Shown here: positions 6,318-19,853 of the stretch, in pieces
Position numbering within the stretch: the first letter of the stretch is position 1
How the letters are laid out: the number at the start of each line of letters is the position of its first letter
Source of the DNA: a virus
Lineage: Duplodnaviria > Caudoviricetes
Reading direction: 5' to 3' (one strand)
Virus record (IMG/VR): IMGVR_UViG_3300010048_000015
Span: 1-52,539 of that record
Length of the DNA: 52,539 bases
Position numbers and translations under genes: made by a program
Notes under the pieces: model-generated
What the model saw: only the letters and a program-made list of their open reading frames with translations
Databases searched by the model: none
Told to the model about the DNA's origin: nothing

Positions 6318-6411
6318 TCGTCTGGCCGCGATTATGTCCGGCAAGGACTGGGACGCGAACGCGAAGCGGCAGCGCGAGAAGGTCGAGAAGTACAAGGACA
6401 AGGGGAAGTAG
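6244..6411 (+). CDS. small basic protein, 55 aa (not in ORF track)
   Basis: GGAG RBS; MGKKDKLG...KDKGK; stop overlaps terL GTG. Confidence 0.55.
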   Translation: MGKKDKLGTVKDLRGVGMAGRKPANRLAAIMSGKDWDANAKRQREKVEKYKDKGK

Positions 6412-7886
6412 TGGACAGGCTGACCGAGGCCTTCTGGGCAAAGGTCGGCTATACTCCGCACCGCTCACAGAGGCTGTATCACGAGAGCCCTGCTCGATTT
6501 CGAGTTCCTTGCTGCGGGCGCAGGTTTGGTAAGAGCACGATGGCTGCGAGGGACGTTACCCCCAAGCACATTATGCGGCCGAACCAGATGATTTGGATAG
6601 TGGGGCCCACTTATGACTTGGCGGAGAAGGAGTTCCGTGTAATCTGGAACGACCTGATTGTAGGCCAACGGCTGGGACGTGATAAGCGAGTCAAGAAGTC
6701 CTACGCCAAGCGTTCGGGCGATATGTACATTCAGCTGCCGTGGGGAACGCGGGTTGAGTGTCGGAGCGCTGAGCACCCGGAGTATCTGGTTGGGGAGGCG
6801 CTAGACCATGTCATCATGTCAGAAGCGGCGAAGCATAAGCGAGAGACTTGGGAGCGGTACGTCCGACCGGCACTTGCGGACCGACGAGGAGGCGCTGACT
6901 TTCCTACTACTCCCGAGGGCTTCAACTGGCTTCATGACCTCTGGCAGCTGGGTCACCGCGATAAGTACCGTGGAATTTTTGAGTCCTGGAGGTTTCCGTC
7001 CTGGGAGAACGGATTCGTGTACCCTGGAGGTCGACAGGATGAGGAGATTCTGCTCCTGGAGGATACTACGGAGCCTGAGTGGTTCATGCAGGAGATTGGT
7101 GCGGACTTCGCAAGTTTCGTAGGCAAGATATTCCCGGACTGGGACGAGAGTCGCGGTGTCATGACCTCGGAGTACAAGTTCATTCCTGGCTGGCCTAACT
7201 ACCTTGCTCTCGACTGGGGATACACGAACCCGCTTGCTGCTATGGAGTTCCAGATTAGTCCACAGGACGAGATTTATGTTTGGCGTGAGTACTATCGCAA
7301 GTACAAGACGCTCCCAGCGGTCGCCGACGAGCTGAGGAGCAGGCCGCAGCCTCCGGGCTACCACCTTGACCTTATGGTCGGTGACCCCGCAGACCCGGAG
7401 GCTGCGGCTACCATGTCGAGGCTGATGGGTGTAGGTTGCTGGGCTCCCAAGGAGTTGAAGTCGGATTATACTTGGCGTGACGGTATCGACTTGATGTCTG
7501 GCTTTATGCACCCCGTTGAGATTGACAAGGATAAGTGGGGCGCACCGATTGAGGCTCCACGCTACCACGTCGCGTACGAGTGCGTGAATCACATTCGTGA
7601 GCTCAACAACTACCGATCTAAAGAGCCAGTTCAAGGTCAGAATGTGCCGGAGCTAGGCAACAAGGTCGAAGACCATACTATCGACGCGATGCGCTATGCG
7701 CTCCTAGCCACGTTCAAAATGGGCGCGAGAGGCAATCACCTCGTGTCCGAAATGGTCGACGCTGCGCCTGTGGAATCAACTCCACGGGAGGTCGCGGCGA
7801 AGCGGACACTGCAGAACGATTTTGCGGATATGCTGGCGGGTACGTCGGGAAGTCAGGGCTTCTTCCAGATGGGTGGGGAATTTTGA
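6411..7886 (+). CDS. terL: terminase large subunit
   Basis: CGRRFGKS Walker A, HVIMSEAA Walker B, LALDWGYTNP and DHTIDAMRY nuclease motifs. Confidence 0.95.
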   Translation: MDRLTEAFWAKVGYTPHRSQRLYHESPARFRVPCCGRRFGKSTMAARDVTPKHIMRPNQMIWIVGPTYDLAEKEFRVIWNDLIVGQRLGRDKRVKKSYAKRSGDMYIQLPWGTRVECRSAEHPEYLVGEALDHVIMSEAAKHKRETWERYVRPALADRRGGADFPTTPEGFNWLHDLWQLGHRDKYRGIFESWRFPSWENGFVYPGGRQDEEILLLEDTTEPEWFMQEIGADFASFVGKIFPDWDESRGVMTSEYKFIPGWPNYLALDWGYTNPLAAMEFQISPQDEIYVWREYYRKYKTLPAVADELRSRPQPPGYHLDLMVGDPADPEAAATMSRLMGVGCWAPKELKSDYTWRDGIDLMSGFMHPVEIDKDKWGAPIEAPRYHVAYECVNHIRELNNYRSKEPVQGQNVPELGNKVEDHTIDAMRYALLATFKMGARGNHLVSEMVDAAPVESTPREVAAKRTLQNDFADMLAGTSGSQGFFQMGGEF

Positions 7887-9754
7887 ACCTCGAAGATTTG
7901 CCTAGAGTCAATCTCGACGACCTGCTCGCTTCAGGGTACGCGCCCGTTGTAGTGTCGCGAGAGGACGGACAGGAGTTTGTCGTTGTAGTGCCTGAAGGTA
8001 CAGACTTGCCTGTCGAATCCACTCCTAGTCGTAGAATGACTCCGGATGAGCACTCGCAGATGCTTGCTGATAGGCCTCTGAGGCAGCGAGTCGAGGGAGG
8101 CGCGTCGGTTGGGCGACCTGCTAACGTACCGCAAGACATTCCGGTAGACCCGCCGCCGAAGGAGCGACTAGGTATTGGGCGTATGACTAGGCAGATTAGG
8201 GTTCATACGCCCGTAGATATGGCTGTCGGCGAGGGCATTGGTCCTATGGAGCCTGTTCCTGCTTTGAACTCGGAGCTGGGTAGCGCTGCGCCTAGTCCGT
8301 TTACGTCATGGATGCGTCAGGAGTACAACCGCGACTTGATTGGCCTGAAAGGCTTGCGGATGTACGATAGGATGCGCAAGTCCGACGGTACTGTACGTGG
8401 TACTATGCGTCTTGCTAAGACTCCTGTGCTTGCTGGTCAGTGGTCGATGAAGCCTGCGTCGTCATCGTCTAAGGACCAGATGATCGCAGACTTCGTTTGG
8501 TCCAACTTGACGCAGTGGATGTCGTCCTCGTGGCCTCAGACGATGACCGAGTCGTTGTTGATGCTAGACTTCGGCTACTACATGTTCGAAGAGGTATTTG
8601 AGCGTGGCGAGACGGTTACGAACGACCCGAGGGCTCGTGGGAAGATTGTCTGGAAGAAGTGGGCGCCTCGGCATCCGATGGACGTTCGGGAGTGGTTCTT
8701 CGACCTCAATGGCGGACCTCTTAGTGTCGACATTTGGACTTCGCCTATCTTCGTTCCGACGCTAGAGGGTGGAACGACGATAGGCCAGTATCTCCAGTAC
8801 ATTAACATTCCGATTGATAAGCTCGTCGTCTTCTCGTTCGACAAGGAAGCCGGCAACATTGAGGGGATTAGTCTTCTACGTAGTGCCTACAAGCACTGGT
8901 ACTACAAGGACAACCTCTACAAGATTGATGCGATTCAGAAGGAACGTCACGGTATAGGCGTACCGGTTATACAGTTGCCGCAGGGATACAGTGCAGGCGA
9001 CTTGGCGCTAGCAGATCAGCTTGGTCGGAACCTACGAACGAATGATAGGGCTCACGTAGTTCTGCCTCCGCTATGGGTTCTATCCTTTGCCGAATTGTCT
9101 ACGCAGCCTGTTGATTGCATAAGGTCGATTGAGCACCATGACGTGCAGATAGAGAAGCAGATTCTAGGGCAGTTTCTGCAGCCTAACATGAAGACGGCTG
9201 AAGCCGATCAGACTCTGTTTCTCAAGGCAACGCGCTTCACTGCGGACATTGTCACAGACGTCATTAACTCGTATGCGATTCCGCAGCTTGTAGACATGAA
9301 TTGGGCTAGCGCTCAGTATCCGCAGCTGACTGTTAAGCGAATTGGTGAGCAGGAAGACTGGCGTACAGCCTCGTTCACGATTCGTAACTACGTTGGAGCA
9401 GGTGTCATTGTTCCTGATGATCCGCTCGAGGCTCACCTTCGCGACGAACTGGGTCTACCTCCTGCAGACCCAGCGACATCACGGCTAGTGCGTTCGACAA
9501 CCAACAGGAACATCGCTCAGCCTCCTCCGGCCGAACTGCCTGGCTCGGCTGCAGATATTCACGCGGCTATACTCTCCGGGCAGCTTACGCCGGAGCAGCT
9601 CCAGCAGCTACTCAACCAGCAACAGCCGTCCGGGCCTACGGAGCAAGGCGTTGGTGCGGTTGCTGGACAAACGCGGCAGTCACAGCCAGGACTGGTATCA
9701 CCTTCAACAGGACGAGGCGACAGATCAGGGAACTCAGGTAGGCGAGGCCAATGA
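7883..9754 (+). CDS. portal protein (DUF935/Mu gp29-like)
   Basis: Follows terL; GISLLRSAYKHWYYK, ERHGIGVPV, IPQLVDMNW motifs. Confidence 0.9.
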   Translation: MNLEDLPRVNLDDLLASGYAPVVVSREDGQEFVVVVPEGTDLPVESTPSRRMTPDEHSQMLADRPLRQRVEGGASVGRPANVPQDIPVDPPPKERLGIGRMTRQIRVHTPVDMAVGEGIGPMEPVPALNSELGSAAPSPFTSWMRQEYNRDLIGLKGLRMYDRMRKSDGTVRGTMRLAKTPVLAGQWSMKPASSSSKDQMIADFVWSNLTQWMSSSWPQTMTESLLMLDFGYYMFEEVFERGETVTNDPRARGKIVWKKWAPRHPMDVREWFFDLNGGPLSVDIWTSPIFVPTLEGGTTIGQYLQYINIPIDKLVVFSFDKEAGNIEGISLLRSAYKHWYYKDNLYKIDAIQKERHGIGVPVIQLPQGYSAGDLALADQLGRNLRTNDRAHVVLPPLWVLSFAELSTQPVDCIRSIEHHDVQIEKQILGQFLQPNMKTAEADQTLFLKATRFTADIVTDVINSYAIPQLVDMNWASAQYPQLTVKRIGEQEDWRTASFTIRNYVGAGVIVPDDPLEAHLRDELGLPPADPATSRLVRSTTNRNIAQPPPAELPGSAADIHAAILSGQLTPEQLQQLLNQQQPSGPTEQGVGAVAGQTRQSQPGLVSPSTGRGDRSGNSGRRGQ

Positions 9755-10843: not shown

Positions 10844-13687
10844 ATGCCTCTAGAGGTATTTGGGTTCAATCCTTCGACGACTGTCGCTATAGCCAAGACA
10901 GCCGTTGCTGCCGGTACGACTGAAACTTGGGTCGTCGGTTCCAATACCGGCTGGCCTACTGCAGACCCAACTGCTCTTCCCAATACGCAATTTCACATAG
11001 CCGATCCGCAGGCGACATCAGAGTCTGTTCTTGTGACGGATAACCGGACGACATCATGGAGCGTGACACGCGGAGTTGAGAGTACTACTCCTGTAGCTCA
11101 CAGCGCTGGCTTTACCATCCAGCAGGTGGTGGGGCCTACATTCCTGAGCGGCTCGGACGTACGAGGTGGTGTGTACAATGCGAAGTATCACTTTGGATGT
11201 AAGGGTGACGGTAAGCAGGTAACTGACGGAGCCATGACTAACGGCTCGGCTACGTTCACTTCTGCTACAGCGGCGTTTACAGCAGCAGACGTCGGCAAGC
11301 ATATACTTGTGGCACAGGCCACGTCGACATCCATGAGGCTCGCGGGGCGTATTGCCTCTGTGACTAATGCGACAACAGCAGTCCTTAGCGTCAGTGCCGC
11401 TCTTTCTGGTTCAGGCATGACTATGGTACTGGATGGTGTTCGTACTGTCACTGATGCTGTCACCACATCAGGTTCGGCGACTGTCACTTCGGCGACGATA
11501 GCGTTCACGGCAAATGATGTTGGCAAGGCAGTGTACGTTGAAAATGCAAACACAGTTGGTCTCAACACAACAATTAGCGGATACACTAACGCTACTACAG
11601 TGACACTAGCGGCTTCCGCGACTCGCACGTGCTCCGGATCGCTTACGACGTATGGAACTGACGACACGACCGCTATCATTAATGCATTCACATGGGCCGC
11701 TACTCCATCAGCGACGTCACTATACTTCCCGGCTAGTATGTATCTGGCCAAGCCTTCTCATCTCGGCGTTAACGCTATGAACATTCCGGCTAACGTTCGG
11801 ATATTTGGAGACGGCTGGGACACTATCATCCGATCCCTCGGTGCAGAGGACCCTGCGAATAGAAGCTGGGAGCTATGGGGCATTAACACTGGTAGCGGAG
11901 GTTCATCCGATCCGTCTACCAACGTGTCTAGTGTCATTATCGAGAACATGCAGTTTCAGGGGACGCAGGTTGAAGAAGGCTTTCTGGAGAACGGTAGCAA
12001 CCTGCTATCTCTTAATGCGGCTTCCGGTGTAACAGTGCGTTCTTGCAAGTTTTACAACTCCAGATCTGACGGCGTCTATCTCGGGTCTGGTACTGCGGGC
12101 GGAATCGAGCGGCACAATGAGAATATACGCATAGAGGACTGTCGCTTTGACGGAGTAGCGAATCAGTGTCGTAATGCTATCTCCATCATCGATGGAACCG
12201 ACGTCTCTATTGACAAGAACTTCTTTACAGGCTGGGCTAACGAGCTGATGCCTGGCGCTATCGATTCGGAACCGAATGACTATACGTTTATCCGGCTGCG
12301 TGGGATCAGGATCACTAACAATACATTTACCATGATCGGTGGCAATCAGGCCGTCGCCTCCATATACCTGAACACTCCGGCCGACTGGTACATTACCGCG
12401 CACAAGGGCTGGATATTCGAGAACAACTACATTTACAATTGTCTGTCTTCGACTATAGGCATCTTGCTATCCGACCCCAACTATCCGTCTGATGTTACGC
12501 CTCGTCTAGATGCAATTGTCTCCAATAATGTATTCAGAGGCAATCAAGCCGACTATACAGGACTCTCATACGTTGCAGACCTTGAGGGTATACGAGGGGT
12601 TAAGTTCTATAACAACTTCTTCGACATTACTCAGAATCCAATTCTACTCGGCTCCAACTATAAGTGTATGGACATCGAGATAGTAGGTAACACTTTCAAG
12701 GATGTATCTAGCCAGGCCGGGATCGCTATACAGATCATGCGCTGTGAGCGCCTGAAGATAGATGGCAACATCTTCGATCACATCTCGCCTGCGGGCTCTG
12801 GCGGTTACATCACTCGTTTCACTAATGCGTTCGCATCCCTCATTACGCCTTCCGGTGTTGTGGCTACGCCGTCGAACACCGGCGGTACCCTGACAGCCGC
12901 TCACGGAGCGTACGGTTATCGGGTAGCGGCCTACCTAGATGATGGGTCAACTACTGTAGCATCGACAGAAGTTACAGCTACTATCGCATCAGGCACAACA
13001 GGTAGCATTGCCCTTAGCTGGCCTCCCGTCTACGGTGCCAAGGGATACAACGTATATGGTCGTACGGTAGCGGGCGAGCTTCTCATGACTCCAGCGGGCA
13101 TCTCGCAGATCACTGCTCCAGGCAATGTCACCTTTACCGATACCGGATCCGTTACGCCATCTGGCGCTCTTCCTACCGCTAGTAGCTCCAACGGCCATTC
13201 TGCTAACGTTAGCTTCACCGGCAATATAATTAGGCAGGGCGCAACTAACAGCGTTGGCTTGATATCAGGCCTAGTAGCAGGACATGCGACACAGGCTAAT
13301 ACCCTAGCCTACTACAACAACATTCTGCCTAATAACCAGACGCTTCCCATCTCGCCATTTGTGTCGTCGCAGAATCAGTACACGATATCAGCTTCCGCAC
13401 AGAACGTAGATGCCTCTCTTGTTCCTGACGACGGTACGGTGTTCATGTCTACCTCTGGCACGTCGGCTGGGGCGCTGACCATTATCAATCCCACTATCGG
13501 TCAGGTCATCACGTTCATATTCAGGATAGTAGCAGCCAGTGGTCTTTATAACACTGCTGCCAATATGAAGTTTGCGGGAGGTGCATCGGCCGCCAAGTCT
13601 ACGACAGCCGGATACTCAGATATTTATACGTTCTGCTACGATGGAACAAACTGGAACGAGCTGAGTCGTGCTATCGGCGTCCGTTGA
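10844..13687 (+). CDS. tailspike/depolymerase-like beta-helix protein
   Basis: GCKGDG...TDDTTAI, LYFPA, beta-helix repeats (IRIEDCRF, ITNNTF); FnIII-like YRVAA...LSW...GYNVY segment. Confidence 0.85.
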   Translation: MPLEVFGFNPSTTVAIAKTAVAAGTTETWVVGSNTGWPTADPTALPNTQFHIADPQATSESVLVTDNRTTSWSVTRGVESTTPVAHSAGFTIQQVVGPTFLSGSDVRGGVYNAKYHFGCKGDGKQVTDGAMTNGSATFTSATAAFTAADVGKHILVAQATSTSMRLAGRIASVTNATTAVLSVSAALSGSGMTMVLDGVRTVTDAVTTSGSATVTSATIAFTANDVGKAVYVENANTVGLNTTISGYTNATTVTLAASATRTCSGSLTTYGTDDTTAIINAFTWAATPSATSLYFPASMYLAKPSHLGVNAMNIPANVRIFGDGWDTIIRSLGAEDPANRSWELWGINTGSGGSSDPSTNVSSVIIENMQFQGTQVEEGFLENGSNLLSLNAASGVTVRSCKFYNSRSDGVYLGSGTAGGIERHNENIRIEDCRFDGVANQCRNAISIIDGTDVSIDKNFFTGWANELMPGAIDSEPNDYTFIRLRGIRITNNTFTMIGGNQAVASIYLNTPADWYITAHKGWIFENNYIYNCLSSTIGILLSDPNYPSDVTPRLDAIVSNNVFRGNQADYTGLSYVADLEGIRGVKFYNNFFDITQNPILLGSNYKCMDIEIVGNTFKDVSSQAGIAIQIMRCERLKIDGNIFDHISPAGSGGYITRFTNAFASLITPSGVVATPSNTGGTLTAAHGAYGYRVAAYLDDGSTTVASTEVTATIASGTTGSIALSWPPVYGAKGYNVYGRTVAGELLMTPAGISQITAPGNVTFTDTGSVTPSGALPTASSSNGHSANVSFTGNIIRQGATNSVGLISGLVAGHATQANTLAYYNNILPNNQTLPISPFVSSQNQYTISASAQNVDASLVPDDGTVFMSTSGTSAGALTIINPTIGQVITFIFRIVAASGLYNTAANMKFAGGASAAKSTTAGYSDIYTFCYDGTNWNELSRAIGVR

Positions 13688-13700
13688 GGTGTGATGTGCT

Positions 13701-16280
13701 ATGGCCTGGACACTGCGCGGATACTTTGCCGCTAGCAGTGGCGCGAGCAACGCATCTACGTTTACGCCTCCAGTTACCGGCTGGACGACTGCTAATCCGC
13801 AGACTGGTGATGTCCTGGTCATTATTCAGGTTATTGATGTGTCAGTAGCGACAGTTGCGCAATCTGGCGGTACATTCACGTTTACTGTTCCTAACACCGC
13901 AGGCGATCAGAACTCAGGAGGAGCATTCTGCACTTGGGCTGCCTATCACGTTATGGCCTCTGGTGATACTTGCCCGACTTTGACGTTTAATGGCACTAGG
14001 TCAAGCTACCTGATATTTGCTCTGACTCCTGATTCCGGCTCTACTGCTAGTTTTGATACGCAGGCCACCCTGAAGGTAGTCACGACAGCTGCTACCTCGT
14101 TTACCCCTAACTCAGCAGCAGGAGCAGCTGCTGGAGAGGTAAGTGTTATCCTCAACGCGGTGAAGGCGTCGGCTTCTGGAGCTACTACTGGAGTCACACA
14201 GACACCTTCGTCTGGATGGACCGCAATATCTGTTAGCGGGTATGTCGGAGGTACAGGCACCAAGAACGCTAATGGCGTAACGGCTTCCTGGCAGGCCTCT
14301 ACTTCGTCTGCAACGGTTACGCCTGGCGCGGAGACGGTAGCTGCTGGCAGCACTACCGTCTGGAACAACATTTACCATTTCCTGTTTACAGAAACTACAG
14401 GAGGTGGTGGAACAACATGGGCTCTGGCAGGATCTGCTACCGCTACGTCGGGTGCTTCTGGGACATTTGGAATGCAGGGAGCTGTCTCTGGAACAGCTTC
14501 TAATAGCTCGTCCGCTTTTGGCGTCGTAACGTTGCTGCTAGTTCTAGCAGGTTCGGCTACTGTAACTTCGAGTGCTTCCGGCTCCATCAGTATTCCTGTT
14601 CAAGGTGTCTCTACCGTATTTAGTGGTGTTCCTGGAGCGTCTGTTCCGGGCGCTATGGTGCCGGGCAAGGCCGCAATTGTTCAGCCAGCAGGAGCTATAG
14701 CAGGAACATCGGTTACTGCTAGCTCAGCTTCGGGTACGATTACTCTTCTTGCAGTATTCAGCGGTACAGCTGTTTCCTCTTCTTCAGCTTCCGGTGCGAT
14801 TACTCTTCTTGCGGTCTTTAGAGGTACTGCCTCCAATACTAGTTCTGCCTCAGCACTGATAACGCTGCTCGTTGTAGCTTTCGGGACTGCTTCTAATACA
14901 AGCTCGGCTTCTGGCTCGTTTGTCGAGATCCTTGCTCTTGCTGGTACTGCTAGCAACGTCTCGTCAGCTACAGGTATCTTCGCGACCCCTATGGCGGGTA
15001 CTGCCTCGAACGTCAGCAGTGCTAGCGGTTCTCTGACTCTGCTTGTGGCTTTGGCAGGAACGTCTTCGAGCTCAAGTACGGCCACAGGGTCAATAACTCT
15101 TCTTGCAGTCTTCAGTGGTACAGCTTCGAACGTTAGCTCAGCGAGCGGTAGTCTGACTGAGCTCTTGACTTTGGCGGGTACGGCCTCCAATACCTCATCA
15201 GCTTCTGCTTCCGTAACGCTGCTTGCCAAGCTGAGTGGTTCCGCAGTTAGTACGAGCGCTGCTTCTGGTTCCATAGCTCTGACTATTCAGCTAGCAGGTA
15301 CAGCTTCCAACTCGAGTACTGCATCTGGGTCGATAACGCTACTCCTGACTTTGGCTGGTACGTCTTCTACTAGTAGCAGTGCCACGGGTACCTTCGGTGC
15401 GCAGGTGATTGCGGGTACTGCTTCGAATGTTAGCTCTGCAAGCGGTAGCTTGCAAGGGTTCACGCGTACTATAGCAGGTACAGCTGCGAATACGAGTATA
15501 GGGTCGGGTACCTTTGCTCTCGTAATGGCGTTGGCTGGTACTGCAGCAAGCAGTAGCTCTGCTTCGGGCGCGTTTATTGCTGTGAGCTTGGCGGGTACTG
15601 CTAGCAATGCGTCAGCTGCCTCGGGCTCTTTCGTTCTCATACGAGGCATAGTTGGTACTGCTTCGAATAGTAGCTCCGCCTCGGGCTCGATAGTCATTAT
15701 AGGTGGAGTCGCTGATACTAGAACGCCGCTGCACCTAGGCGGTTCGGAGACTGAGACTAATACGCTAGGAGGTGCCTGCGCGCGAATTGATACCCTTGGT
15801 GGTACTGCTTCGAATGGTAATGCGCTTGCAGGTACTGCTATCAATAACAATAGTCTTGGCGGTAACGCGACGCACGCAGTCGTCTATGGCGGTACGGTTA
15901 TTAGAACGACCAACGACAGTAGATTGGATGAGTGGACAATGCAGGAAGTGGATATCGGACTAGCAGAGTTCAACGACGAGACGTTGGCTCTAGCCATAAC
16001 GTCGAGCGGGAGTCCTCTCAATCTTACGGGCCTGACGCTCGAGATGTATCTGAAGACGGCATCAGGTATTGCGGATACCGATCCGTCAACGCTCAAGCTA
16101 TCGACTGCTACGGGCGAGATCACTATCACCAATGCAGCAGGTGGACTTGCGACCGCTGCAGTAGCGAGCTCGCATCTGCAGCCAGGTGGTACAGTGTACA
16201 ACTGGTATAGGCTCGATACTGTCAACGCAGGGAAGCGAAACACTGCTATTTTTGGAAAGGTGGCGATTACGCCGTTGTAA
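13701..16280 (+). CDS. repetitive fibre-like virion protein with BppU-like C-terminus
   Basis: Many ~19-20 aa AGTASNxSSASGS repeats; C-terminal PLNLTG...GEITITNAAGG. Confidence 0.8.
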   Translation: MAWTLRGYFAASSGASNASTFTPPVTGWTTANPQTGDVLVIIQVIDVSVATVAQSGGTFTFTVPNTAGDQNSGGAFCTWAAYHVMASGDTCPTLTFNGTRSSYLIFALTPDSGSTASFDTQATLKVVTTAATSFTPNSAAGAAAGEVSVILNAVKASASGATTGVTQTPSSGWTAISVSGYVGGTGTKNANGVTASWQASTSSATVTPGAETVAAGSTTVWNNIYHFLFTETTGGGGTTWALAGSATATSGASGTFGMQGAVSGTASNSSSAFGVVTLLLVLAGSATVTSSASGSISIPVQGVSTVFSGVPGASVPGAMVPGKAAIVQPAGAIAGTSVTASSASGTITLLAVFSGTAVSSSSASGAITLLAVFRGTASNTSSASALITLLVVAFGTASNTSSASGSFVEILALAGTASNVSSATGIFATPMAGTASNVSSASGSLTLLVALAGTSSSSSTATGSITLLAVFSGTASNVSSASGSLTELLTLAGTASNTSSASASVTLLAKLSGSAVSTSAASGSIALTIQLAGTASNSSTASGSITLLLTLAGTSSTSSSATGTFGAQVIAGTASNVSSASGSLQGFTRTIAGTAANTSIGSGTFALVMALAGTAASSSSASGAFIAVSLAGTASNASAASGSFVLIRGIVGTASNSSSASGSIVIIGGVADTRTPLHLGGSETETNTLGGACARIDTLGGTASNGNALAGTAINNNSLGGNATHAVVYGGTVIRTTNDSRLDEWTMQEVDIGLAEFNDETLALAITSSGSPLNLTGLTLEMYLKTASGIADTDPSTLKLSTATGEITITNAAGGLATAAVASSHLQPGGTVYNWYRLDTVNAGKRNTAIFGKVAITPL

Positions 16281-16321
16281 TACAGCGGAAATATAGCCTC
16301 GGGTGGCCTTCTTAGGTTTCC

Positions 16322-16332
16322 TGATATAATAG
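16322..16332 (+). promoter_or_regulatory. extended -10 promoter for capsid operon
   Basis: TGATATAATAG; poor -35; TTGTAATACA at 16275..16284. Confidence 0.65.
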
Positions 16333-16353
16333 GAGATAGTGGAAGGGCAGCAA

Positions 16354-16689
16354 ATGTCAGTGTACAGCCCCAGCGGTTCAGGAAACGTTCATGTCGACCG
16401 CATTATGGGTTCGGGAGGTAAGCGCGTGGCAGGCAGGACTGGCGGAGGGAAGAAGTCAGGCGGCGCGCGCAAGGGGATGGGGTTCAAAGCAGCAGCGGCT
16501 TCAGCTGCCAAGTCTGCAGGTGTATCGCCTAAGCAGGGAGCAGCGATCGTTGCTGCCGCTAGCCAGAAGGCTTCGAAGTCGGCGCGTGCAAGTAATCCTA
16601 ACCTCGCGAAGGTCGCTCGAAAGGGTACGACCAAGACTGCGGGAGGCAAGTTCATCAAGAAGCCCTCTGGAAAGGGGGGAAGTAAGTGA
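16354..16689 (+). CDS. basic Lys/Ala/Gly-rich protein with capsid-like N-terminus (alternative start 16339)
   Basis: MSVYSPSGSGNVHVD vs capsid MAVYAPTGSGNVHID; GTGA coupling to protease. Confidence 0.8.
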   Translation: MSVYSPSGSGNVHVDRIMGSGGKRVAGRTGGGKKSGGARKGMGFKAAAASAAKSAGVSPKQGAAIVAAASQKASKSARASNPNLAKVARKGTTKTAGGKFIKKPSGKGGSK

Positions 16690-17822
16690 GTCGCTATGGC
16701 TACTGGATCGACTTGCAAGGTCGGCAGCTCGGCGACACCTCGTGGATTCAGGCGCTGCCTATCGGTGAGTATGAGCATCCGGTGTATGGCAAGATGAATT
16801 TCACACCGGAGCGTATTCGCCGCTTCGCTCAGGGCGTTCAGGCCAAGGTTCGTGGCCAGGACCTCGACATCGACTACGATCACAAGGCTCAGGACGGCAA
16901 GGCTGCAGGCTGGGTTAGAGCCGCTGACGTTCGTCCTGACGGTCTGTATTTGCAGATCGACTGGACAGATCGAGCCTCCGAAGCAATCCGTGCAGGGGAG
17001 TACAGGTACTTCAGTCCCGAGTTCGACGATGCGTGGAAGGATAGCGCTGGCGTAGAGCACCAAGACGTTCTGTTCGGTGGCGCTCTCACGAACCGTCCGT
17101 TCTTGAAGGACTTGCTTCCCATCAACCTGTCAGAGATCACCTCAACCAAGAAGGCAGATGAAGGAGGTCAGATGGGACCTGAGCAGATCAGAGAGCTGCT
17201 GGGTCTCGAGAAGGACGCCACGGACGAGGCAGTCAAGGCGAAGATCGCGGAGCTTACGGCTGGTCCGTCGGCACCTCCTCCGCCTCCTGAGCCTCCTGCG
17301 CCTCCTCCGTCGCATCCATCCGAGCCCGTTCTCACGGGAGCCAGCCTCGACGAGGCGATCGCTAAGGCGCTCGCCGAGAATCCGCTTCTCGTGGGTATTC
17401 AGAAGCAGCTCGCCGACACGCAGCGAGCACAGACGTTCGCCGAGACCAAGCAGCGCCTGGAGCGTCTCGAGACTGTCTCGAACGGGCGCAAGTACGTTCT
17501 TCCGCCAGCCGTGATCGACGCGGTCGCCGAGGGTAGCGCGCTTTCGGATCCTGCCGAGATGTCGAGGAAGTTCGTCGACGCCATCGAGGCGTTCGGCCGT
17601 ACCGGCTACGTCGAGCTCGGAGAGCGTGGCCGGACACGCAATGGTCAAGAGAAGACCGCAGCGCAGCAACTGTCCGAGCTCGTGTCAACAGCTCGAGCGC
17701 AGCATCTGCAGACGACAGGCAAGCAGCTGTCGACTACCGACGCCATCGCTCAGGTCGTTCGGACCAACCCCGAGCTGTACCTGCAGTACCGACAGGACTC
17801 GTACGCTGGGAAGGAGGACTAG
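16686..17822 (+). CDS. Mu-like prohead protease/scaffold
   Basis: IDYDH, AAGWV, WT..A...I..GEYRYFSPEF, ALTNRPF. Confidence 0.9.
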   Translation: MSRYGYWIDLQGRQLGDTSWIQALPIGEYEHPVYGKMNFTPERIRRFAQGVQAKVRGQDLDIDYDHKAQDGKAAGWVRAADVRPDGLYLQIDWTDRASEAIRAGEYRYFSPEFDDAWKDSAGVEHQDVLFGGALTNRPFLKDLLPINLSEITSTKKADEGGQMGPEQIRELLGLEKDATDEAVKAKIAELTAGPSAPPPPPEPPAPPPSHPSEPVLTGASLDEAIAKALAENPLLVGIQKQLADTQRAQTFAETKQRLERLETVSNGRKYVLPPAVIDAVAEGSALSDPAEMSRKFVDAIEAFGRTGYVELGERGRTRNGQEKTAAQQLSELVSTARAQHLQTTGKQLSTTDAIAQVVRTNPELYLQYRQDSYAGKED

Positions 17823-17825
17823 CCG

Positions 17826-18305
17826 ATGCCTGGCATGGACCATGTACTCGCCAAGGCCTTTCTGGCTACGGGAGGTTCTGTCGCTTACAGCAGGTGGCAG
17901 GTCGTGAAGCAGCTCGGCGGCTCGACCATGCTTCCGGCGCAGTGTGCCGTCATGGTGTCGACGACTGATGCAGCCGTTCTGCCTCTCGGTGTCTGCATGG
18001 AGGACCTCGACGCCGTCAAGACCAACACAGGCAAGGCGATGATCAACATCGCACTCGAGGGCAACGTCAAGGCTATCTGGGATGGCGTGGGCGCTGCTCC
18101 GACTCCTGGTTCGGTCGTCAAGCTCTCGGCCAAGGCGGCAGGCACCGGCAACGGTCAGGTCACCGTCGCGACTAAGGCTGCGGCAGGTGTTCAGCCCGCT
18201 GCATGCCTCGGGTATGTCCTGGACATTCTCGGCAACTCGATCGGTCAGACTGCGACTGCGGGTGACTGGTTGGATGTCGAGCTCGTCCCCGGAATGATGT
18301 ACTGA
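17826..18305 (+). CDS. capsid decoration/cement protein
   Basis: Position between scaffold and capsid; small Ala/Gly-rich beta protein. Confidence 0.7.
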   Translation: MPGMDHVLAKAFLATGGSVAYSRWQVVKQLGGSTMLPAQCAVMVSTTDAAVLPLGVCMEDLDAVKTNTGKAMINIALEGNVKAIWDGVGAAPTPGSVVKLSAKAAGTGNGQVTVATKAAAGVQPAACLGYVLDILGNSIGQTATAGDWLDVELVPGMMY

Positions 18306-18318
18306 GAGGAGGTAGCTC

Positions 18319-19443
18319 ATGGCAGTCTACGCCCCAACCGGGTCTGGCAACGTTCATATCGACGTTGTGCTCACTCAGATCTCGGTTGCATGGCCGAACG
18401 AGGGACTGGTTGGCAACATCCTCTTCCCTAGTGTTCCGGTCCAGAAGCAGTCGAACAAGTACTACATCTTCCAAGGTCGCGAGGGCTGGTACCCCGCGCT
18501 GGATGACGCGCGTGCTCCTGGCACCGAAGCGAACGAGGTGCCTGGTCTGACCGTCTCGATCGGCACCTACTACGCTCAGGAGCACGCGCTCCAGATCGCA
18601 GTCACGGACGAGGAGCGGGAGAACGCTGATAGCCCGCTCAGCCCTGACATCGACGGGACGGAGATGCTCGCGTCTAGGATCGCTCTGGGAAAGGAGTATC
18701 GCATCTACAACCTGGTCGCTACCGCAGCCAACTTCAACGCGTCGTTGACACAGGCGCTGTCAGGCACGGCGAGCGGCGGCTACGGTGCGCAGTGGGATCT
18801 CGCGTCAACGACTCCGATCAAGGACATTCGTACCTCGATGCGAATGGTTCACAAGCTGGCGTTCCTCCAGCCGAACCAAGCGATCATCCCCTACAAGGTC
18901 ATGTCGGCGCTCGAGGACAACTCCGACCTGATCAGTCGCATCCAGTATGTCGAGCGAGCGATTCTGACGCCCGACCTGGTCGCATCTCTTCTGTCGCTGG
19001 ACAATGTCGTCGTGCCGGGCTTTGGTTACGCAACTAACAACCCTGGCCAGACGCTCTCGCTGACGTACCTCTGGAACATTGAGGTACTGATGGCATACGC
19101 GCCTCCACGTCCGGGTCTCAAGGTTCCCGCGTTCGCCTACCAGTTCACGTGGGGCTTTCCTGGCGGCGGAGCTGGCGGTCTAGGATTCGGCTCGGGTGCG
19201 TTCTCGGGTGAGGGTATCGATAGCGCTGGACCGACAACGCTCAACCCGTCCTCGGAGGCCAACGGTCGTCAGAGCAATCTCGGCGGCGGAATCGTCGACA
19301 GGTGGCGTGAGGAGCGTCGTGCCTCTGACGTCATTCGGTTCCGTCAGCGTTACGACCTCGAGCTGATCGGGCTCGACACGAACGGCAAGTCCATATGCGG
19401 CTTCCTGTTCACCAACGTTCTATCCGGCTCCTTCGTGGGTTAG
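18319..19443 (+). CDS. major capsid protein
   Basis: 374 aa after protease/decoration; HIDVVLTQISVA, LFPSVPVQKQSNKY; strong RBS. Confidence 0.9.
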   Translation: MAVYAPTGSGNVHIDVVLTQISVAWPNEGLVGNILFPSVPVQKQSNKYYIFQGREGWYPALDDARAPGTEANEVPGLTVSIGTYYAQEHALQIAVTDEERENADSPLSPDIDGTEMLASRIALGKEYRIYNLVATAANFNASLTQALSGTASGGYGAQWDLASTTPIKDIRTSMRMVHKLAFLQPNQAIIPYKVMSALEDNSDLISRIQYVERAILTPDLVASLLSLDNVVVPGFGYATNNPGQTLSLTYLWNIEVLMAYAPPRPGLKVPAFAYQFTWGFPGGGAGGLGFGSGAFSGEGIDSAGPTTLNPSSEANGRQSNLGGGIVDRWREERRASDVIRFRQRYDLELIGLDTNGKSICGFLFTNVLSGSFVG

Positions 19444-19451
19444 GAGGACTC

Positions 19452-19853
19452 ATGGCTGGCTACGTAGCGTATACCAACGGACTGCTAGCGACCGAGAGCA
19501 GTCCCGATGGCCTCGCTCCTGGTGACACTGTTAGCAAGGGCGACTTCGACGACGAGGAGTGGGCCTACCACGTTCTGCATGGCAACGTCGTTCGTGCAGG
19601 AGGACCGCACGATCCTAACGTTCTGGCGGCCGCCTCGGAGCCGGAAGAGGTTTCGGAGGATCCGAAGGAGCAGCGCATCAGGGCTCTCGAGCAGCAGCTC
19701 GAGATGTATCAAGGACAGCAACAAACTCGCAACTACGAGGTGCACCCCGAGTCTCATGAGGCCGAAGAGGAGGCGTCGGGAGTCAAGAAGGAGGGAACCG
19801 CCCACGCTGGGCAGTCGCGGTCGCAGCCGCGCAATCAACCGCCCACCAAGTAG
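19452..19853 (+). CDS. hypothetical head-associated protein
   Basis: AGGAGG RBS; directly after capsid. Confidence 0.7.
   Translation: MAGYVAYTNGLLATESSPDGLAPGDTVSKGDFDDEEWAYHVLHGNVVRAGGPHDPNVLAAASEPEEVSEDPKEQRIRALEQQLEMYQGQQQTRNYEVHPESHEAEEEASGVKKEGTAHAGQSRSQPRNQPPTK

Follow-up and report, generated by a model that had tools for sequence, protein, structure and literature searches.

A copy of the major capsid protein arm tip on a small basic protein of uncultured phages: a candidate capsid-targeting tag

Results

Gene order of the head region

The window analysed here (52.5 kb) spans an entire IMG/VR virus record, whose completeness is estimated at 82%. Its late region runs from the terminase (6411-7886) and the portal (7883-9754) through genes for proteins of 947 and 859 aa to a small gene, a protease/scaffold gene, a gene for a 159-aa protein, the major capsid gene and the tail genes. 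The small gene (16354..16689, + strand) encodes a basic protein of 111 aa plus stop, which consists of an N-terminal tag, a basic linker, a conserved core and a basic tail. We place its start at the ATG at 16354; the upstream GTG at 16339 is an unlikely one, since a stop codon directly precedes the ATG of MSVY in four relatives (L014, L019, L020 and L022). On the same strand follows a 378-aa fusion of a head maturation protease with a scaffold domain (16686..17822), recognised by PF10123 (E 2.6e-30), phrog_328 (E 2e-30) and the family alignment. Its score of 106.6 bits against PF10123, for which the curated cut-off is 25.2, identifies it as a protease of the Mu-like prophage I type. The stop codon of the small gene (TGA, 16687-16689) overlaps the GTG start of the protease at 16686 in the sequence GTGA, and a small gene overlapping the protease start is also found in related loci. 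The coupling of the two genes claimed in the earlier note is thus corroborated, while the place that it gave to the small gene, at the head of the capsid operon, could not be confirmed: the 859-aa ORF precedes it on the same strand with a gap of 73 nt, and a scan of positions 15800-19800 detected neither a promoter-like site nor a plus-strand terminator-like site.

Between the protease and the capsid lies the gene of the 159-aa protein (17826..18305, + strand), which is kept in related loci and occupies the slot that distant relatives fill with a gene for decoration or a head fibre. Searches of Pfam, PHROGs and NCBIfam assigned it to no family, and BLASTP revealed no likeness to the head fibre protein of phage Ottawa. 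Two further features of the region may be mentioned. The stretch 10844-16280, between the portal region and the head genes, holds the two large genes: the 947-aa protein contains a right-handed beta-helix (PF13229; phrog_32881, pectin lyase-like) and the 859-aa protein is full of repeats of ~20 residues (A-G-T-A-S-N-x-S-S-A-S-G-S...), an unusual location for fibre- or depolymerase-like genes. Within the protease gene, positions 17140-17200 (protease residues about 152-172) mark the junction of the protease and scaffold parts and carry a moderately conserved E-G-G-x-M-D/G-P with a conserved Met. Internal initiation or cleavage at this junction might give a separate scaffold, as in the Mu I/Z pair.

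The major capsid protein and its N-terminal arm

The major capsid protein (374 aa, 18319..19443, + strand) belongs to the phrog_1005 group (E 3.8e-58) and matches the crystal structure 3bjq in the PDB (E 1.9e-14). Its AlphaFold2 (AF2) model retrieved 3bjq with Foldseek (E 1.4e-19), followed by many phage capsids and encapsulins, in agreement with an HK97 fold; 3bjq was the sole close match in the PDB copy, which held no assembled capsid of this family. Residues 1-27 (18319..18399, + strand) form the N-terminal arm, delimited by the AF2 monomer and an alignment of 45 capsids, and residues 1-15 are the original of the tag described below. The arm is predicted with pLDDT below 50, as expected for a segment that becomes ordered only in the assembly, and no docking site for it can be read from the monomer model. 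A Gly-rich insertion of ~40 residues further along the protein (residues 281-321, positions 19159-19281) has a pLDDT of about 30, and capsids at 48-69% identity measure about 320-336 aa, compared with 374 in the window.

The start of the arm is strongly conserved. For comparison, 80 related viral loci were retrieved, and their capsids, from 94% down to 48% identity, all have at the N-terminus some version of M-A-V-Y-x-P-x-G-x-G-N-V-H-I-D, after which comes x-x-L-T-x-I-S. In the 45 aligned capsids (55-94% identity), G8, H13, D15 and L18 are invariant and Y4, P6, G10 and N11 are conserved in at least 90%. Even in the capsids of Arthrobacter phage Ottawa, Rhizobium phage RHph_Y60 and Pseudomonas phage KPP23, at ~30% identity, a G-x-V-H-x-D/N/K is kept before L-T/S-N-x-S-V-A.

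A small, cationic protein begins with a copy of the arm tip

The small protein contains 23 Lys and Arg residues, 1 acidic residue, 21 Gly, 20 Ala and 15 Ser, which gives a pI of about 12 and a net charge of about +22; its sole Asp falls inside the tag. The remainder of the protein is therefore basic and almost free of acidic residues, just as the earlier note had described it. Residues 1-18 (MSVYSPSGSGNVHVDRIM; 16354..16407, + strand) constitute the tag, a copy of the capsid N-arm tip according to alignment, codon analysis and a search of the whole record. They are followed by a Gly/Lys/Arg-rich linker (residues 19-38, 16408..16467, + strand), which varies in length and sequence among relatives, by the conserved basic core (residues 39-87, RKGMGF...NPNLAKV, 16468..16614, + strand), which defines an unannotated family of small phage proteins, and by a Lys/Gly-rich C-terminal tail (residues 88-111, 16615..16686, + strand) with 8 Lys and Arg and no acidic residue.

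The designation of this protein as histone-like holds only in terms of composition. Its Lys/Ala-rich, cationic character is in keeping with the term, but it matches no histone-like family in Pfam, PHROGs, NCBIfam or the PDB. Searches with the small protein gave no Pfam hit at E<=10, no PHROGs hit and no NCBIfam hit below E 0.1; its best match among PDB sequences had an E value of 8, and tblastn against 50,697 deposited phage records returned no match. The core could likewise be assigned to no Pfam, PHROGs or NCBIfam family, also in its stand-alone versions described below, and its sequence has no relative in the PDB, so that composition is what the term describes. A search of the ESM Atlas retrieved unnamed viral clusters only, with DUF6496 at a score of 0.77 as a mere lead, and the Atlas' own model of the protein has a pLDDT of 0.43. 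The small protein is largely disordered and strongly cationic, with a widespread basic core of ~50 aa flanked by Lys/Gly-rich stretches.

The likeness of the two N-termini, which had been reported in the earlier note as 11 identities in 15 residues with diverged codons, was found again as stated: MSVYSPSGSGNVHVD of the small protein and MAVYAPTGSGNVHID of the capsid (18319-18363) share 11 of 15 residues and 35 of 45 bases, with different codons at 5 of the 11 identical residues. A weaker resemblance extends through residues 17-18 (I-M in the small protein, V-L in the capsid). Searched against the whole record, the small protein had just two matches, its own sequence and the beginning of the capsid (residues 1-18, E 0.0025), and six-frame inspection of the window disclosed no second copy of the tag elsewhere. 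As a measure of chance, the N-termini of the 173 window ORFs of at least 80 aa were compared; the best of the 14,878 pairs reached 6 of 14 identities (3 pairs), against 10 of 14 for the tag and the capsid, a pair that stood outside this set because the ORF finder had begun the small ORF at the GTG. The match is no coincidence; what the small protein copies is the part of the arm that the capsids conserve. Judging from the pattern of residues (V-Y, a Gly/Ser turn and V-H-V-D-x-I-M), the arm tip is probably a short hairpin or hook.

The tag is preserved by selection

In the 24 distinct DNA sequences of small-protein tags, Y4, G8, G10, V12, H13 and D15 are invariant, each being encoded by 2-4 synonymous codons, which are all those available. 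The 62 capsid tag DNAs display the same pattern of unchanging residues and full use of synonymous codons. This argues that the tag in the small protein is preserved by selection on the peptide. The two copies differ at position 2, where Ser is found in 23 of 24 small proteins, and Ala, Pro or Thr, never Ser, in all 62 capsids; they have therefore been kept separately and not homogenised by gene conversion. An inert remnant, a functionless trace of an incomplete duplication that took in the capsid gene's 5' end, could account for the nucleotide identity of the two copies in the window. It is nevertheless a far-fetched explanation, given residues that stay invariant over saturated synonymous sites in 24 distinct tags, a position 2 fixed differently in the two copies, and a tag that is still kept where the capsid is only ~48-50% identical.

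Whether each tag follows its own capsid was also considered. Across 24 distinct tag/capsid pairs, the mean likeness was 10.29 of 14 residues, compared with 10.24 +/- 0.12 in shuffled pairs (4136 of 10,000 shuffles were as high); this comparison has no power, since the motif is near-invariant. The only hints are a residue at position 5 that is the same in both proteins of 13 of 24 pairs and an uncommon G-A-G variant found in both genes of locus L095; they carry little weight because the pairs are related.

A widespread basic core, mostly without the tag

The search for homologues of the small protein yielded 34 sequences (E down to 3e-38), of which 27 are tagged. They share the layout of the window's protein, with the tag at residues 1-18, a variable basic linker, a core K-G-M-G-F ... 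N-P-N-L-K-K-V and a variable basic tail, and contain on average 22% Lys and Arg and 1.6% acidic residues. An alignment of 33 of these sequences revealed G41, M42, G43, F44, N81, L84 and V87 as the invariant residues of the core. The window's protein belongs to this GMGF...NPNLKKV core family by a profile match over the ~50-aa core, and the family is large, with at least 401 relatives detected by tblastn in viral contigs and 566 cluster representatives at E<=1e-3 among 1.84 billion. Most core proteins are stand-alone, 50-120 aa in length, match over the core only and are untagged; only 4 of the best 150 of the 566 representatives match from the tag onward. Of 10 loci with stand-alone cores, 9 have them in the neighbourhood of head, tail, portal or terminase genes; in the tenth (L138) the neighbours are HNH and holin genes only. 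The untagged majority would either enter heads by another route, or the core is not a head protein at all.

A tree of 84 distinct cores, built on 50 columns and weakly resolved, groups the tagged proteins together: the label changes 9 times, compared with 28 in shuffles. Four untagged long forms nest in the window's own clade, alongside 7 tagged forms, and N-terminal modules have therefore been exchanged on one and the same core. Long basic proteins rich in Ser, Gly, Arg and Pro (177-369 aa) fill the same slot upstream of the protease in several loci (L026:3109-4218, L027:3660-4337, L103:4521-5186, L105:597-1442 and L042:887-1420; proteins P0048, P0056, P0058, P0065 and P0066). They are untagged, most of them have the core at the end, and they share the motif H-V-P-A/S-H-T/S-F-A-x-S-T-M/I-P-R. 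In more distant relatives, Lys-rich proteins of 37-86 aa with a pI of 10-12, lacking both tag and core, run up to the protease start or overlap it (L046:4082-4342, L047:4256-4369 and L051:4210-4347), so that a protease-coupled slot for a small basic protein recurs with unrelated sequences.

Presence and portability of the tag

Of the 80 capsid-related loci, 62 could be evaluated upstream of a full protease, over 450 nt. Where the capsid is at least 70% identical to that of the window, a tagged small gene lies directly upstream of the protease in 22 of 22 evaluable loci, with the core in 20 and without it in 2. Of the others, 2 loci have long untagged core proteins, 1 has the core by itself and 37 lack both tag and core, some of these having other small Lys-rich genes upstream of the protease; the capsid family is therefore able to assemble without the small protein. 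The tag persists where capsids are only ~48-50% identical to that of the window.

A degenerate DNA pattern was used to scan viral contigs for the motif, and at least 135 loci carry it. The matches listed comprise 107 capsids, 21 proteins with tag and core, and 7 others, namely 3 tags on core-less Lys/Ala-rich tails (L201, L256 and L234) and 4 in-frame fusions to the protease. In L015 and L016 the tag is likewise followed by a basic tail in which the core is absent. Across the relatives, the carriers of the tag are thus core-bearing proteins, three core-less basic tails and one protease/scaffold, with one tagged gene per genome besides the capsid. In more distant phages, with capsids of ~48-50% identity, the tagged gene lies away from the protease, in one case upstream of the terminase (L107:129-497) and in another ~6 kb upstream of the protease (L201, on the same contig as L080). 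The tagged versions at these two loci have long extra C-terminal tails, often ending in Tyr; a C-terminal Tyr motif common to portals and basic proteins was considered and dropped, as the portal ends differ. Taken together, these distributions indicate that the tag is a selected, portable module. It is also an accessory, lineage-specific device, because 37 of 62 relatives do without it, the distant tagged genes lie off the head region and most cores are untagged.

The fusion to the protease is best seen in L303 (4501-5868), where a 455-aa protease/scaffold is headed by a 27-residue arm copy and a 45-aa domain. The arm copy matches the capsid of the same phage at 22 of 27 residues, and the fusion is present in all five loci of the lineage (L299-L302 and L303). 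The second domain has a ~40-residue beta3-alpha fold (residues 30-69, pLDDT about 75) and no family in NCBIfam. The portal gene is directly upstream of the fused gene at this locus, and a separate small basic gene is absent. In the AF2 model of the natural fusion, residues 1-19 have a pLDDT below 50 and are not docked.

These carriers bear on the two roles that the earlier note had offered, an address tag or a decoy. In the second case the small protein would stay outside the head and transiently cap an arm-binding site on capsid or scaffold, thereby stopping premature or aberrant polymerisation or timing the protease. Its translation together with the protease/scaffold and its mimicry of an assembly-active segment are what a regulator of assembly would call for, and a chaperone or regulatory role of a shared N-terminal peptide is discussed by the authors of the study on phage 80alpha, in the part cited here (PMC5744158). 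A regulator of this kind would have no need of a tail with a net charge of about +22, an arm copy on the protease/scaffold points to entry of the carrier and not to blocking, and the basic tails are freely exchanged while the tag stays; we consider such a role rather unlikely. An address or co-assembly tag is a better fit than a mere decoy, because the tag is selected, portable, present in 22 of 22 loci and found on varied basic tails as well as on a head protease.

An N-terminal extension in some capsids

In three related lineages (L039/L040, L043 and L046), the capsid bears a conserved N-terminal addition of 34 residues, with the consensus ...G-R/Q-P-I-x-L-x-A-G-G, whose A-G-G end directly abuts the motif (A-V/I-Y-N-P). 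The extended genes (L039:2482-3600, L043:5887-6969 and L046:5620-6990, also L040 and L202) have a clear ribosome-binding site and an ATG. The extension may be a cleaved propeptide, and no second copy of it was found on other proteins of all the loci fetched.

As the main alternative to an address tag, the shared peptide could be a processing leader, cut from both the capsid and the small protein by one protease, of Mu-I type or from the host, and devoid of any addressing role. In L039, L040, L043 and L046, the motif stands behind the A-G-G and would be N-terminal only through cleavage, and Gly-Gly also occurs after the tag (M-G-x-G-G) and at the domain junctions of the protease proteins. A precedent is provided by phage 80alpha, in which one conserved N-terminal motif heads both the capsid and the scaffolding protein and is cut by the host protease Prp, as described in the cited part of that study (PMC5744158). 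Against a leader, the motif runs unbroken into the conserved arm (V-H-I-D-V-V-L-T-x-I-S), and V-H-x-D is kept in the ~30%-identity capsids, whose N-termini are only 5-8 residues longer; in appearance it is therefore a structural part of the capsid and not a disposable leader. Furthermore, we know of no cleavage site for the Mu-I-type protease family, and 18 conserved residues exceed the need of most cleavage sites. In phage JBD30, whose head protease is separate, residue 6 is the first of the capsid arm to be resolved, according to the cited part of the structural report (PMC11445458). A leader with no addressing role is accordingly improbable in our opinion. Processing and addressing are nonetheless compatible, because the targeting sequence of T4 is both a tag and a leader.

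Discussion

Comparison with known loading systems

Short head-loading tags are known from T4, whose prohead protease removes the tag, and capsids that carry proteins have been constructed with their help. A parallel to the system described here is offered by the capsid targeting sequence (CTS) of T4, a short N-terminal peptide on otherwise unrelated, mostly basic small proteins, which loads them into the prohead, where they lie on the DNA; in the part of the work cited, the CTS is all that the internal proteins have in common and their lysines contact DNA phosphates (PMC3012670). The differences lie in the origin and the target of the peptide: the CTS addresses the scaffolding core and is not described in that part as a copy of the capsid (PMC3012670), whereas the tag reported here copies the tip of the capsid N-arm. 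T4 also has a family of tagged proteins and its own type of prohead protease, in contrast to the single tagged gene seen per genome and the Mu-I-type protease (PF10123) of the present phages. The T4-type cleavage motif does not follow the tag, and the tag region has no Glu.

A conserved N-terminal motif of ~14 residues is likewise common to the capsid and another head-assembly protein of phage 80alpha; Prp cuts it between F and A, 13-14 residues are removed, and the motif also occurs on non-homologous proteins of other phages, according to the cited part of the report (PMC5744158). That motif is described there as copying the leader of the host ribosomal protein L27 (PMC5744158), while no ribosomal likeness was seen in the tag. 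The partner in 80alpha is the scaffolding protein; here it is a basic protein or a protease, and the motif is part of the conserved capsid arm. No F-A site is present in residues 1-30 of either the small protein or the capsid, so that a Prp leader of the 80alpha type was not found in these two proteins.

Two further systems employ shared or terminal peptides. The lambda C/Nu3, Mu I/Z and herpesvirus UL26/UL26.5 proteins are nested protease/scaffold pairs with a common capsid-binding C-terminus, and they resemble the present case in that a shared terminal peptide secures the co-incorporation of a second protein into the procapsid. There the shared end is that of the scaffold and arises from overlapping frames, whereas here it is that of the shell protein, is N-terminal and lies on separate genes. 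The cargo-loading peptides of encapsulins are short terminal peptides that direct cargo inside an HK97-fold shell; they are not copies of a shell segment and their cargo is enzymes, not DNA, whereas the present tag copies the shell arm.

A structural way for a free arm copy to dock may be found in the contacts of arm tips in phage JBD30, by analogy. Its capsid N-arms form hooks that pair at the pseudo-twofold axes and bend away beside the portal, as set out in the cited part of the report (PMC11445458). The JBD30 capsid belongs to a different sequence family, and that part describes no accessory protein with an arm copy (PMC11445458). Our literature searches found no description of a cargo protein carrying a copy of the N-terminus of the major capsid protein. 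What is new here is a putative capsid-targeting tag, copied from the arm tip of the shell protein itself, in uncultured phages.

Proposed working of the tag

We propose that the tag is a mimic of the capsid arm that brings its carriers into the procapsid, the carrier in this phage being an internal protein that neutralises DNA; to our mind the arguments for and against this proposal are about evenly balanced. The small protein bears a copy of the arm, the copy is selected and portable, and its gene is coupled to the head module. The steps could be the following. In this lineage, a small protein would have gained a copy of the capsid arm tip at its extreme N-terminus. The tag would then repeat the contact of the arm tip in the assembling procapsid, the partner being a second arm tip, the inner surface of the capsid or the scaffold. 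Through this contact, the small protein would be carried into the procapsid along with the co-translated protease/scaffold. Once inside the head, the basic remainder of the protein would associate with the packaged DNA and offset its charge, and the tag may or may not be clipped afterwards by the head protease.

In more general terms, it can be hypothesised that the copying of an arm tip is a natural and so far undescribed route for loading HK97-fold procapsids, in which the copy pairs with arms or replaces them, for instance at unpaired positions beside the portal, and that it is used for a DNA-neutralising protein and, in one branch, for the protease/scaffold. This wider proposal is plausible, with the balance leaning slightly against it.

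The family of small basic phage proteins with this core, large and previously unannotated, is now defined by 566 cluster representatives and is found in structural gene modules. Should the proposed working of the tag prove true, a peptide of 18 residues would suffice to direct any cargo to the inside of these capsids, and a phage head would be loaded in a way both new and highly economical. It would also explain how copies of a Mu-type protease and of a DNA-coating protein are counted as they enter the shell. The tag would hint at the assembly partner of the conserved arm tip, and would provide an 18-residue handle for the packaging of foreign proteins into this type of capsid.
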